Shown: positions 4,965 through 54,019, counted from the stretch's first letter. The stretch is DNA of 64,000 bases from Octopus vulgaris (GCA_951406725.2 OX597828.1:37200001-37264000), one strand, 5' to 3'. Notes: generated by a model not told the origin, from the sequence alone. A program made the numbers and translations.

Positions 4965-5055
4965 TTTTAGTACAATTGTTTCATACAAAGACAGGCTTTA
5001 TTACAAGTTGCAAAAATTGCAGCAGATAAAAGTGTCCTGTACTCATCAGCTAAAA
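4965..5055 (-). ncRNA. Type I hammerhead ribozyme (minimal, PLE/retrozyme type)
   Basis: Minus strand UUUUAG-CUGAUGA-GUACA...UGUAU-GAAA-CAAUUG-UA^-CUAAAA: 6-bp helix I, helix II GUACA/UGUAU, palindromic helix III ACAAUUGU. Confidence 0.8.
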
Positions 5056-5168
5056 TACATATGAGTTCTCCAAACATCTTAGTGGGTGAGGTTATACTCA
5101 TGAAATATTGGAGATAATTTCATTAAAGGCAGATATAGGTTGCAAACAGATTTCCAAAGTTCCTTAAT

Positions 5169-5371
5169 GATGATGGACAGTCTTATCACAGATTCTTAAA
5201 AGCTTATTAGTTCCAAAGAGAAGATGAATTAATCCGTAGTGTAGATTTAAATTTCCAGAGATATGAGGAGGATGGTGCACAGACTTATCACAGGTTTTTA
5301 AAAGCTTATTAGCTTCACAGAAAAGGTGAATTAATCCGTAGTGAAGATTTAAATTTCCAGCGATATGAGGA
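5169..5371. repeat. Diverged 102-bp tandem duplication
   Basis: TTATCACAG...AAAAGCTTATTAG...GAATTAATCCGTAGTG...ATTTAAATTTCCAG at 5183 and 5285. Confidence 0.85.
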
Positions 5372-5727
5372 ATTTCATACTCACAGACGATGAATTTAAC
5401 CATTGTTAATCCACAATCATTTCATGCTATACGATAAGGTACATTACTGCTCTCCATGCAAAACTGCTATGTTAAGATTTCTAAAGGCTGAAGGAATTTA
5501 TTTGTGGAGCAAAGAAAATAAAGAAAAAGGAAAGAGACAAGGAAAAAAGAAAAAGAAAAGGGAGAAGAAGAAGAAAGGAGGAAAAGAAAAAGAAAAAAGA
5601 AAAAGAAAAAAGAAAAAATAAAGAGAAACGGGGGAGAAGTATATTTTCGGGACATACTGGCGTTATGAGTGGGAATGAGTTTTTGTCTATGGCTATATAT
5701 ATATATATATATATATATATACACACA

Positions 5728-5957
5728 TAGTAATCTCACGCCATATCACGGTTTCCCTATCGCGGTTTATTATTTAAGCTCCCGTCGATTCCTCCGTGGT
5801 GCTGTTTTGCATTTATAATAAAATAAATATATAAAAATGATGATAATAATAATAAAATACCCAATGCAATACTGTTTCTACTTAGCGGATTTTTATCTAT
5901 CACGGGGGTGGGGTGGATGTTTGGAACGTAACACTCACGACAGTTGAGAGATCACTG
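5728..5957. mobile_element. pogo/Tigger-like MITE
   Basis: Imperfect TIRs (T/C)AGTAATCTCACG... and ...TGAGAGATCACTG followed by TA; subterminal TATCRCGG motifs. Confidence 0.6.
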
Positions 5958-6187
5958 TATACATATATATATATATATATATATATATATATATATATAT
6001 ATATATATATATAATACAGTGTACATTTAAACACATAAGGACTCCACTCATGGGATTCAACCCGCTAGAAAGAACAGCTAGGTTCTATAACCATAAAATT
6101 AGGGATAAAATTCGACAGGAACGAAATGAAAAAATAAAAACATTTTACCATCTAATTTCCTGGACCAATTGGTTTCTGATTTTAGTT

Positions 6188-49412: not shown

Positions 49413-49494
49413 TTCCCTATGGCCATTTCAGGGGTATATTATTGTGTTTAAAGCACTAGGGTGCATCACGCTAATAACTCCTTCGTCAGGGGAA
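49413..49494 (-). ncRNA. Type I hammerhead ribozyme
   Basis: Minus strand UUCCC-CUGACGA-AGGAG UUAUU...AAUAA..CCCCU-GAAA-UGGCCA-UA^-GGGAA; palindromic AUGGCCAU; one mismatch in helix II. Confidence 0.72.
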
Positions 49495-51634
49495 AAAATA
49501 GAGAGACAGACATCATCGCGTACCAGGCTAGCACAATGTTGTGTGCTTTCTTATTGAAGAAGTCATGCTCGGACGAGCCTAAAAGAAAGAATTATTGCAG
49601 TAAAAAATTTTTTTATAAAGCAGTAGAAAAATAAAGCAGTAAAAGAATAAATAAATAAAGCAGTAAAAAAAAATGGGTGTATTAAATTAAATTAAATTAT
49701 ATTAAATTGAACCTCCGTGGTTTCAAATCCTGTAAGAGCTAAATTATTTATTTTCTACAACTTATTTTATTCATCTACACTTTTAAGAATGGTAAAATCC
49801 GGTATCGTCGTCTTCAGTGTATTTTCCTCTCGCCGCTCATACTATAATTTCATTCTCTCCTTGGCAATACCTTCATTTTATTCAATCAATTCACAACATA
49901 CCTAACTTGAATATACTACCGTTCACATAGCAGATGAAAACTCAGCAAATAAATCACTATATAAGTGTTATAATACCAAATTAAGTCACGGTCTGATAAC
50001 GTAGAAGCCGCTGTTAACCTCAAGCTAATAAGAAATTGAATATTGGTTGGTGCTGAAGTTATCGAACTAGCTTTAAATTAAAATGAGTGTTTACAAACAT
50101 GCATTAATTCATATATACATCCACACATACATGCACACACACACACATATGTATATATATATATATGTATAGAGATTCGTATATACATACATATATATGT
50201 ATATAAATATATAAATATATTTATATATATATATATAATATGTAAATATATATATATACATTAATATATATATATACATATAAATATAAATATATATATA
50301 TATATATATATATATATATATATATAGATAGATAGATAGATAGATAAATACGCAAACATTCATACACACATACCTTCCACACACACGTATGTGTGTTTAT
50401 GCATATGACCTTTGTTGAAACGTCACATACGCATCTTCAACCGAGCATCAGCGTAATACATTCACAGTGTACATCCTATTGACTTTGGTCGATGTGTTTT
50501 CATTCTTATATGTACATATGTGTATGTGTGTATACGTGCATACACACATACATGCATAATGCATATATATATATACACACATATAAATGCACACACGCAC
50601 ACTCAGACACAAACGCACGCACACACACACACACACACACACACACACACATATATATTCAATTATGTATGCTTATGTATATAAATATGGATGAGCGCGT
50701 GATGTGCGTATGCAGTTCCTTAAATATTCACGATTGAACGATAAAAACGTTGAAAATAAGTTTAGCTTGGCGCGATGTCTAAGATAAGGACTGGCTTTAT
50801 ATTTATAAAAGATTGCCAAGGGCGGGCAACGAACATCGAAGATATTTTAGAACACTTAGTCATGTGAATATATTTATGTATAGCAGAATGGATACAAACA
50901 TTTTTGATACGTTTTTGATAACTTCTGATAAGATATCAACGTTAAATGAATATAAACTAAGATAATAAATTCGACCGATTTTTGTAGTATACACACATAC
51001 ACACCTAGATAAATAAGCATACAGACAGGCAAAGATGCAAACATATACGTGCACACACACGTGAAAATATTTATGTATACACATATGTATGCGTGCATGG
51101 ATATATATATATATATATATATATATATATATATATATATATATATGCATATATATGTATATATATATATGTGTGTATATATTCGGATATATATATATGC
51201 ATACATATGTATATGTATATATATATATGCATATATATGTATATTTATGTGAGTATATATTTGGATATATATATATATATATATACATATATATAAATAA
51301 AGCAGTATTTTTACCGTTATTTATAGTATAATAGGGTGGCTACCAAGTTCACAATCTTACAGGCACACTACCCTACTTAATCGTATATATATATATATAT
51401 ATATATATATATATATATATTTATGTATATTTATTTATATGTATGTATATATGTATATGTATACATATATATATATACATATATATACATATATACATAC
51501 ATACATATATATATATTGTTATATTTCGGAATGGTCATATTGCCAGTTTAGCCAATAAAAACACACGCACTATATATTTGGTGTTATTTTGCTTCAGTGA
51601 TATTTATTTTTTACATTAATCTTAATCTTATTTC

Positions 51635-51679
51635 GGCCAAAGTTCTTTCGTCACACTCCTGTGACCGCATCAGTGGTCC
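51635..51679 (-). ncRNA. Candidate variant hammerhead (A9 replaced by C)
   Basis: Minus strand GGACCA-CUGAUGCG-GUCAC(AGGAGU)GUGAC-GAAA-GAAC-UU^-UGGCC. Confidence 0.5.
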
Positions 51680-53926
51680 TTTGTTTTCTTCTCACTTACT
51701 TGTGTCTCTCCTTACTAACCGTCAGCCATTTTGTATTTCTATTGTATGTCTTCATTTGCGCATGCTTATATCTCTATGTGCGTCTATGTTTATTTAGTGT
51801 GTGTGTGGGGGGGATGCCTGTAATATTTGTATCTTCTGGTTATATACATTTTTGTAATTTGTATTTTGTTTTTGTTGTTGTTGCTTTTGTTCTAATTTTG
51901 TTCATGTGTTTACATCCACCCATTATTATCATTACATATGCTTGTATGTATGTATAACAACAACAACAATATTAGTAATAATAATAATAAATCTAATCGA
52001 AAAAAAAAATATTTATATATATATACATAAATATGCATATATATATGTATATATATATATATATATATATATATATATATATATACATATACACACACAC
52101 ACATATATACGCATTTTGTTTTAATAGGTCATGGTACAAAGTCGTAAATATTCCGAAATATAACAATATCTGTTTCAACACACGACTTCACATAAAAAAT
52201 CTTGCACAACAAATATTTAAACGTACATATATATATAAATATATATATATATATATGTATATATATGTGTATATATAAATATATACATATATATATATAT
52301 ATATATAAATATGCATATATATATATATATATATATACATAAATATGCATATATATATGTATATATATATATATATATATATATATACACATATACACAC
52401 ACACACATATATACGCATTTTGTTTTAATAGGTCATGGTACAAAGTCGTAAGTGTGCAGAATACGAATTAATACCGGATGTTTGCAGAGCGATATATATA
52501 TATATATATATATAAAAATTTGTGTGAGTGCGTCTTCGGTAGGTCGATCGTCCTGTCGATCATGAACGACAGCCAATTTGAGCGTGTAATCTCAATTTCC
52601 CGTGCATTAGCATGCACGCTCGTGTACATGCATACAAACACACACACACACATACACGCATGCTTATACACGTAGGTTCAAATATACGCGCAGACAACAA
52701 GATACACAAATCTGCACAAAAAACGCAAGCGTCGCATACACATGTACTCACACACAAATACACATATATTTCTATTATACATGTATGTGTATGTGCTTGT
52801 GTACATGGATTTGAACGCGTGTGTGTATAGGTGTTTTAGCTTGTTTCTTGACCTACATCTCTCTCTCTCTCTCTCTCTCTCTCTCTCTCTCTCTATATAT
52901 ATATATATATATATATATATATATCTGTCTGCCTGTCTGTTTTTCTGTCTGTCTGTATACATGTATGCACGTATGTAGTTATGTAAAGAGAGGCATACAT
53001 GCTTACATTTTTACATGTATATACGTGTGTGTACCTACAACTACCATATACATACTTACATACATACATACATACATAAATACATACATACATAAATACA
53101 TACATACATACATACATACATACATACATACATACATACATATATATATATATATATATATATATATATATATAGGAGACCGGATGGTAAACGGACTTTT
53201 ACAGTCGGCTTTTCGATGCCCCCATTGGCGGCGTTATACTTATCTTGCTTATAAATAACGCTTATAAATAATACCTGCACCCGGTTACACTACTTACATG
53301 AAAATAGTCCATTGGTAATAAATTCTGAAAAAGCCTTTAAGAGAAATATGATTAACCATTGCAAGGGGAATTACTCCTGTGAGATGAATGGGGCTTTGTT
53401 TTTGACGACGGGGGGTTTCTTTGACAAGGCATGATTAGACGAACACACGCACACATAAAATATTTTTCTGCCGCCCGACGGATTCTACAGCAGTGACCAT
53501 TGTGTAGAGCTGTTTACCAACTGACAGCCGCGCGATCAAACGCACACACGTACACATAAAATGTTTCCTACCCCTTGACGGATTTCTCAGCAGTGACCAG
53601 AATGTAGCGCTTCTTACCAACTTGCGCACACATATATAGAACAGTAAACACACACATGTCTCTAAGTAGATTTTGGCTCGCCCCATATAATACATCTAAT
53701 ATTCTTTAAATAGTCAGAACTTTACTCTCGGTCACAAAGAACATCTACACACCCCGTGCCCTCACCCACCGGAATGATCGCTGCCTGACCCGTTAAAATC
53801 TTCAACGCACCCACCACACGTTTTCAACATACACTGATAAATAGTTTGGCCATGGGCTCTTAGGAGCCTAGTTCGATTTGTTTTGCTCCGCCTCTGTTCT
53901 GTTTTTGTTTTTTCCAACGGATTTCC

Positions 53927-54019
53927 TATTTCTTCCTGAAGAGAAAGACACAATATGGTCTCATTATTCAATCGGAATTTGGTAAATTGTGCCTTTCGAA
54001 ACACGTGTAGAATGAAATA
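53927..54019 (+). ncRNA. Type I hammerhead ribozyme
   Basis: UAUUUCUUC-CUGAAGA-GAAAGACACAAU...AUUGUGCCUUUC-GAAA-CACGUG-UA^-GAAUGAAAUA: 11 of 12 pairs in helix II, palindromic ACACGUGU, 9-bp helix I with one bulge. Predicted cleavage after A54009. Confidence 0.88.

Follow-up and report, generated by a model that had tools for sequence, protein, structure and literature searches.

Hammerhead-bearing 3′ ends of Penelope-like elements and their probable short non-coding passengers at TA repeats of the Octopus vulgaris genome

Penelope-like elements (PLEs) of the Hydra clade insert at (TA)n and carry universal hammerhead ribozymes, and the clade includes an Octopus family, Hydra-1_Obim (Craig et al., 2021; PMC8557442). 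Palindromic PLE hammerheads have been read as dimers (PMC4209133; PMC3088659, legend to Fig. S8; PMC6765202), and the retrozymes of coral and mussel self-cleave and form circles (PMC7229834). In the Poseidon element PAc of Anolis both DNA strands are cut and reverse transcription begins at two internal start sites (Frangieh et al., 2024; PMC11167929). Here we compare these systems with a 64,000-nt stretch of the Octopus vulgaris genome (GCA_951406725.2, OX597828.1:37200001-37264000; the window), in which an earlier note had described several hammerhead families lodged in or next to TA tracts.

The window is a dense cluster of a known system, consisting of PLE 3′ ends and retrozyme-type passengers in TA microsatellites. 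Judged from its sequence, it very probably holds the 5′-truncated tails of at least four coding PLE families and, beside them, four short elements that encode no protein but contain a hammerhead, likely copied by the enzymes that copy the PLEs; most of these insertions end at TA repeats, and the hammerheads are predicted to cut only as two-copy pairs. Three less usual features are worth recording: a long stem II, a monomer family with a G3-C8 core pair, and paired changes in the palindromes of helix III. Our literature search, which covered part of the supplement of Craig et al. (2021), returned no octopus hammerhead paper beyond that study, and the novelty of the long stem and of G3-C8 is provisional; the passages of PMC13282606 that were consulted mention neither ribozymes nor Hydra.

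Hammerhead families of the window

Hammerheads were sought with a type I descriptor in which the 3-8 pair may covary, the stem II region spans up to 90 nt and a palindrome in helix III is optional; the position quoted for each core is that of nucleotide 3. The window gave ten matches, all ten with a palindromic helix III, while 60 block-wise dinucleotide shuffles of the window gave a mean of 0.38 matches and no palindromic one; this control applies to the strict descriptor. When a bulge in helix I was permitted there were 11 palindromic matches, the extra one at 53936, and a looser base of helix II brought the total to 13 hammerheads with palindromic helix III in six insertions, through the gain of 11009 and 6231 (-). 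The 11009 copy is damaged, its G10.1-C11.1 pair being gone. A loose-scan candidate at 49774 (-) was rejected, as it lacks helices I and III. The hammerheads that the earlier note had listed (4965, seven at 9854-13114, 48353/48713, 49413 and 53927) are all present as descriptor matches, and the strict matches are denser than in dinucleotide-shuffled sequence, equal density being the outcome that would have refuted its reading. Rfam reported no hammerhead among the best 150 of 391 matches in the window, where microRNA-model matches to TA repeats dominate, and targeted Rfam scans of the B and C units defined below found none at E≤5.

We refer to the families of the window as A (core at 5049), B (536-bp unit), C (360-bp unit; 48359 and 48719), D (49489), E (53936), F (6514), G (51673) and J (6231); H and the clusters with x numbers lie outside it. 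The type I core (N3-U-G-A-N-N8-A9, G12-A-A-A15.1 and U16.1-H17, with 3-8 pairing) is present in A-F and J and fails in G at A9. Helix I is open and has 4-9 bp, helix II has 3-7 basal bp, and helix III is predicted by folding to form mainly between copies.

A link between these hammerheads and PLEs is borne out for A, D and E, which lie downstream of open reading frames (ORFs) with Hydra-clade motifs. Family E is the most complete. Its copy at 53175..54231 (+), flanked by TA tracts on both sides, comprises the last 26 codons and the 3′ untranslated region (UTR) of a coding Hydra-clade PLE, and its hammerhead (53927-54019 (+), core 53936) has a C3-G8 pair, a 55-nt stem II region, helix III ACACGUGU and a GUA site. 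An intact 904-amino-acid ORF was found in locus L156 (3902-6616) and matches the last 26 codons at 53178-53255 of the window with 96% in tblastn. It carries RIRW, DKT and YRDD motifs and a GIY-YIG-type endonuclease (EN) with CxxC (CNLC) and C/FPH, and no CCHH; the Pfam search of the 904-residue protein gave no domain, and the clade assignment of E therefore rests on motifs. The copy of D, at 48949..49791 (-), is likewise the 3′ UTR of a coding Hydra-clade PLE, with a hammerhead at 49413-49494 (core 49489; C3-G8, stem II region 53 nt, helix III AUGGCCAU, AUA site). Its coding part shows DKT, YRDD, CxCx5C, CKLC and CIH, a Pfam match to GIY-YIG (E=0.00046, under the curated cut-off), and an EN upstream of the ribozyme in 11 of 26 matches, the nearest at 242-275 nt. 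The A element at 4936..5639 (-) is the 5′-truncated 3′ UTR of a coding Hydra-clade PLE and ends at a (TA)17 tract (4902-4935); its hammerhead (4965..5055 (-), core 5049) has C3-G8, a 60-nt stem II region, helix III ACAAUUGU and a GUA site. In 5 of 55 matches to this family an EN with CxxC (CQLC) and CxH (CVH) was located 1.35-1.5 kb upstream, and locus L151 has a piece of reverse transcriptase (RT) farther up.

A single ORF in which RT is followed by a C-terminal GIY-YIG EN is therefore intact in E and found in pieces for D and A. As far as their sequences were read (A from the EN, without its N-terminus), the three agree with the clade's set of RWK-like and DKT motifs, no CCHH, and CxxC with CxH in the EN, the RWK-like motif (RIRW) being recorded in E and DKT in E and D, and these ORF links fit the Hydra definition of (TA)n insertion and universal hammerheads (PMC8557442). 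The CxCx5C linker typical of that clade is present in D and H and absent from E. Further features in common with the Hydra clade are a sense-strand 3′ hammerhead and tandem and inverted copies. In an RT tree of 45 rows, for which 43 homologues (P0002-P0044) were offered and kept if they had both anchor motifs, 64 more being left out and named Hydra references not among them, A, D and E fell into one group (100/97), which also took in three cephalopod-side homologues; the short-stem family H lay outside it. The PLE protein has 107 homologues found, one of them from the cephalopod Argonauta hians. The octopus families differ from the 26 Hydra rows of File S2 (PMC8557442) in hammerhead shape: those rows have a loop II of 3-10 nt and helix III palindromes that are mostly odd-length or imperfect, while in A, D and E 53-60 nt separate A9 from G12 and the palindromes are perfect 8-mers. 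The 904-residue ORF of E without CxCx5C and the A 3′ UTR of about 1.4 kb also depart from the clade as described.

The fourth coding family, G, occupies 51516..52009 (-) and occurs as two arms around an ORF in locus L162. This ORF has a CX4CxxC linker and a weak GIY-YIG match (E=0.03) and reads as Neptune/Nematis, a label taken from its motifs. The motif at 51673, which is the weaker hammerhead reported near 51635, is a conserved part of this repeat family, but its activity is doubtful because C replaces A9 and helix III (AGAACU) is non-palindromic. An own-genome DNA search with 51590-51740 returned no match, itself included, and G was found among the fetched loci instead. At 34486-34700 a perfect hairpin matches the Rfam model MIR6135 with a score under the cut-off; being built of inverted copies of the G 3′ end, it is a retroelement footprint and not a microRNA gene.

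An EN-domain search intended for many Hydra families gave one, H, in the loci examined. H is a young Hydra-clade family (150 near-equal EN matches scored, 30 fetched as L251-L280) with a 3′ UTR of 2.4-3.4 kb, in which alternating purine-pyrimidine microsatellite makes up 64% in L281, and a short-stem hammerhead at the end. Unique islands are kept in identical order in 9 of 10 loci (L281-L292, e.g. G000:C2:201955000-201963500), and, on this sequence reading, the H element itself carries and spreads TA/TG tracts.

The remaining families are non-coding. The left arm of B (9576..11065 (-)) contains 2.8 units of a 536-bp repeat with hammerheads at 9937, 10473 and 11009 and ends with its long 3′ end (+291) at a TA tract, and the right arm (11065..13250 (+)) contains about 4.1 units with hammerheads at 11443, 11979, 12495 and 13031 and terminates at a TA tract with the short form of its 3′ end, about +160; the right-arm hammerheads have C3-G8, a stem II region of 51-52 nt, helix III ACAAUUGU and a GUC site. 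C (48337..48932 (+)) consists of 1.65 units of a 360-bp repeat between TA tracts, its hammerheads at 48359 and 48719 having U3-A8, a short stem II, helix III ACCGGU and a GUC site. J (6013..6468 (-)) is a two-armed insertion of a tandem unit with TA tracts on both sides and a hammerhead at 6159-6235 (-) (core 6231; U3-A8, stem II region 48 nt, helix III ACCAAUUGGU). F (6493..6695 (+)) is a 203-nt monomer with fixed ends, G3-C8 at core 6514, helix III AAUAUU and U17. The weaker hammerhead that had been placed at 6503 is a decayed copy of this real family, with G3-C8 as suggested, but in another register, helix III being AAUAUU with U17 and not AAAUAUUU. The description of all these elements as non-autonomous accordingly holds for B, C, F and J and fails for four of the eight families, A, D, E and G being 5′-truncated 3′ UTRs of coding PLEs.

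Insertion at TA tracts

TA adjacency was scored as a tract of (TA)4 or longer starting within 25 nt of the 3′ terminus, in loci that were the best-scoring copies and not a random draw. Such a tract was found at 34 of 35 termini for A, 23 of 24 for B, 24 of 36 for C, 28 of 28 for E, 13 of 16 for J and 6 of 18 for F. The background was 4.8% of positions in a genome sample (60 evenly spaced 10-kb stretches, or 600 kb of a 2.8-Gb genome) and 8.3% of window positions, and the predicted enrichment next to (TA)n is confirmed. D ends in a TA-rich tail and was left out of the tally because this AT-rich tail has several ends.

Two fixed 3′ ends were recognized, at +35 and about +150 from the cleavage site in A, at about +160 and +291 in B, and at +183 and about +225 in C. 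Two-armed insertions use one short and one long end in 6/6 cases for A, 8/8 simple cases for B and 14/14 for C, as counted by eye; the B loci L019 (complex) and L011 (end unseen) are not part of this tally. By analogy with PAc, the short/long end rule fits two internal start sites for reverse transcription combined with both-strand cleavage. There, too, two internal starts give an optional tail, both strands are cleaved at AT-rich DNA and the hammerhead lies near the starts, although PAc belongs to another PLE clade and its tails measure 30-40 bp (PMC11167929), whereas those found here are longer, at about 43 nt in C, 115 nt in A and 130 nt in B. We do not favour a model in which homology to the TA target primes synthesis, since the single biochemical study found starts at non-homologous internal sites (PMC11167929). 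We suggest that the PLE protein would nick both strands of a TA tract, start reverse transcription at two internal RNA sites and stop at random; the hammerhead would be the part most often deposited because it lies just upstream of these start sites and the stops are random. The end rule is in this sense a testable footprint of how PLE enzymes copy RNAs.

Palindromes and two-copy cleavage

The fetched DNA contains 45 hammerhead clusters, 18 of them with at least 40 nt between A9 and G12. In all 10 of the 18 that have at least three matches the commonest form of helix III is a perfect 8- or 10-nt palindrome, a figure to be read in light of a long-stem filter that retained palindromes, 3-bp stems or one mismatch and was biased toward palindromes. 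Stem II measures 48-70 nt across the long-stem families, unlike the 7-8 bp of helix II in the PLE hammerheads of PMC4209133 and PMC3088659, and the inserts are mostly extended irregular hairpins (folding z -4.8 to +0.6 for 16 representatives). Two spike-moss PLE-X rows with loops near 30 nt (File S2, PMC8557442) set a long-loop precedent outside animals. Rfam misses such motifs, since stem II exceeds what its models allow in a sub-group of Hydra and in several retrozymes, and hammerheads are probably undercounted in genomes of this kind. Of the long-stem clusters outside the window, x31 forms arrays with a spacing of about 593 bp (1,324 candidates) and x12 at least one array with a 460-bp spacing (1,251 candidates; both L341-L360/L361-L380).

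In monomer folding, the probability of the A15.1-U16.1 pair is at most 0.06 in 10 of 12 families, reaching 0.19 in E and 0.63 in J. Flank similarity, scored after removal of core and helix III, joins four sister pairs at z of about 6-10: E and x9, x16 and x31, x12 and x27, and x27 and A. In three of them (z about 6-8) the partners differ by paired changes in the palindrome, each form being the majority in its family: ACACGUGU (58/58) against ACAUAUGU (25/30), ACGCGCGU (4/6) against ACGUACGU (40/42), and ACGAUCGU (22/28) against ACAAUUGU (2/3), where x16 and x27 are represented by 6 and 3 matches. Because the changed positions would lie in an unpaired loop of a monomer, the paired changes favour pairing between copies. 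These results suggest, on the folding models, that the hammerheads likely cut as two-copy pairs, and they add comparative support for dimer cleavage in vivo, the case for which has until now been chiefly structural, together with the low rates measured in vitro. The earlier proposals that the palindromes serve dimer cleavage, that natural cores include U3-A8 and G3-C8 and that many families coexist agree with these data. In tandem transcripts, two copies would swap helix I arms, pair their palindromes and form active cores; cleavage of such dimers would release unit-length, possibly circular, RNA, and helices I and III would jointly make the reaction selective for a family.

A number of observations weigh against this account of copying and cleavage. 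The minimum-energy monomer folds of A and x12 lack helix I, and mutation bias confounds the paired changes because all three follow CpG-decay paths. Of nine Xenopus retrozyme dimers predicted to be active, eight failed to cleave in vitro (10.64898/2026.07.22.740005), and the Poseidon hammerhead cut only with protein, insertion not needing cleavage (PMC11167929). The 5′ ends of copies are scattered, lying within 11 nt of the cleavage site in 0 of 28 B copies and 5 of 41 C copies (about 2.5 expected). No empty target sites were seen, and the 3′ TA tract may pre-exist or be added. The E ORF has long low-complexity inserts in place of the CxCx5C linker, which has been proposed to guide (TA)n targeting, and still has 28 of 28 termini at TA tracts. 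The flanks of A and B are weakly alike (z=2.2), so that a common origin of the two is not established, the loci examined gave no helper for any of B, C, J and F, and the helper of F may differ because only 6 of its 18 termini are at TA and target-site duplications occur.

Some of these points would also suit motifs that are folds which the PLE protein binds or remodels, with RNA cutting slow, protein-dependent or dispensable for spreading. Besides the Poseidon result, the 5′ ends of copies do not mark the cut site, F copies retain sequence upstream of it, F has U17 and G has C9. Conservation of catalytic cores, of three forms of the 3-8 pair and of NUH sites across many unrelated families argues for a function in cutting, as do the coral and mussel retrozymes, which self-cleave and make circles (PMC7229834), and we consider a protein-bound fold unlikely, though it deserves serious attention.

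The palindromes could also be selected, family-specific dimerisation codes, with the 536-bp element cleaving coding-A RNA in trans through their common ACAAUUGU, as the earlier note had speculated. Three of the four sister pairs do differ in palindrome, but palindromes are reused and not unique. The 10 long-stem families with at least three matches have 8 palindromes, 9 of the 10 having one that starts with AC and three of them having ACAAUUGU, and ACACGUGU, ACCGGU, ACGCGU and ACGUACGU each occur in two clusters; an AC-starting 8-mer has 16 options, compared with 45 clusters. Among 342 non-cognate pairs, helix III alone would let 40 through, helix I alone 19, and both together 4, all within the ACAAUUGU group, which makes helix I the stricter filter. 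Selection for difference is not separated from drift under the constraint of self-complementarity.

For A and B themselves, the suggested cross-activation is in register one way only. The B core on the A site is predicted to form 8 bp of helix III and 6 bp of helix I at -2.0 kcal/mol, compared with -2.5 kcal/mol for A on itself, while in the reverse combination, with the core from A and the site from B, pairing is blocked at 1 bp. With its own helix I at -11.2 kcal/mol, B would rarely swap; one-way cross-cleavage of A by B is possible on paper and energetically disfavoured. We therefore regard a selected code acting in trans as improbable, and our literature search found no cross-family trans-cleavage between retroelement hammerheads. 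A bolder proposal, to which we give very little credence, is that dimer interfaces act as a recognition system among dozens of co-resident families, in which palindrome and helix I diverge under selection against cross-cutting and the 536-bp element retains the palindrome of its helper together with a helix I that still fits, cutting coding-A RNA without being cut. If true, a parasite's ribozyme would act on the element that helps it. The young families, some with palindromes in common and others not, form a panel for testing ribozyme cross-cutting.

The non-coding elements and their abundance

In B (536-bp unit) and C (360-bp unit), tandem units have ends that join their own starts without an intervening ORF, and the tandem layout of J was read from its flanks. 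The three resemble metazoan non-LTR retrozymes (LTR, long terminal repeat; PMC7229834; 10.64898/2026.07.22.740005) in having non-coding tandem units of a few hundred bp with one type I hammerhead each, GC below 50% (by eye, C being near the limit) and co-occurrence with PLEs, and 360 and 536 bp lie within the reported range of 51-972 bp. They differ from reported retrozymes in that their two-armed insertions in (TA)n combine a short 3′ end with a long one, and in the long stem II of B and J and the U3-A8 core of C and J; they are known here from DNA. Arms of 2.8 and 4.1 units in B need a multimeric or circular template.

F stands apart from this group. Its top 20 loci are 203-nt monomers, with target-site duplications of 8-13 nt of non-repeat sequence in 5 of 20; a further locus, L288, has irregular truncated repeats. 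Copies begin at a fixed 5′ end, about 20 nt upstream of the core, their termini are complementary, and an extra G stands between positions 9 and 10.1; helix I is damaged in the window copy, while other copies have a 7-bp helix I and the G3-C8 core. On its sequence, F resembles in behaviour a short interspersed element (SINE) more than it does a tandem retrozyme. The literature searched, which did not extend to the likeliest source, Lunse et al. (2016), gave G3-C8 only as an engineered rescue and no natural family of high copy number.

All the elements might instead be ends of autonomous-type PLEs (solo pseudo-LTRs), leaving B, C, J and F as no separate parasites. Their end structure and targets are common to A, D and E, and Xenopus retrozymes match PLE terminal repeats (10.64898/2026.07.22.740005), but the B and C units abut their own starts with no ORF between, and a Hydra profile found no EN upstream in 94 B, 49 C, 15 J and 14 F matches (20-30 loci per family). 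BLAST of the B and C units against the fetched loci likewise gave no ORF-linked relative, and we judge it very unlikely that these are PLE ends rather than the likely passengers described above.

No sequencing run listed as carrying the sequence is recorded as RNA. Contigs of three presumed-RNA runs cover the B unit, and two of them span the end-to-start joint, as does a fourth run of unstated kind. They are no evidence of circles, because the joint also exists in tandem DNA and contigs are silent on strand and ends. At 11516-11519, 11528, 11575 and 11613 of the window, A>G changes appear in contigs of two presumed-RNA runs, while the large run X15 shows none or almost none of them; in one contig all four As of the 3′ strand of B helix I are changed. 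These could be A-to-I editing of transcripts.

First-look genome searches returned 1,478 candidates for A, 1,326 for B, 2,287 for C, 279 for D, 1,570 for E, 2,015 for F and 1,959 for J, numbers that are not copy numbers; the top A candidates are 98-100% identical and the top 40 B candidates are identical. The 600-kb genome sample contains 21 descriptor matches, of which 11 are palindromic; ten shuffles gave 0-8 matches and 0-2 palindromic ones. Extrapolation suggests about 50,000 strict hammerhead motifs genome-wide, with a wide error because matches cluster. The window is about 10 times richer in palindromic matches than the sample (11 in 64 kb against 11 in 600 kb) and has 98 TA tracts compared with 48.5 per 64 kb. 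It is true that TA tracts are dense, 24% of window positions having one within 300 nt downstream, and that non-palindromic matches arise in shuffles (0-8 per 600 kb), but with no palindromic match in the 60 window shuffles, with multi-copy families of fixed ends and with binomial p values of 1e-4 to 1e-44 for TA at termini, chance matches in low-complexity, TA-rich DNA are refuted for A-F and J and have almost no prospect of accounting for the window, whereas single-copy descriptor matches outside it may be chance.

A 361-bp tandem repeat at 16556-17256 (1.9 copies) has no descriptor match. The ORF listing of the window shows low-complexity frames and transposase scraps and nothing else; decayed transposase-like frames at about 7900-8700 and at 16300-16680 are Tc1-like by motif reading.

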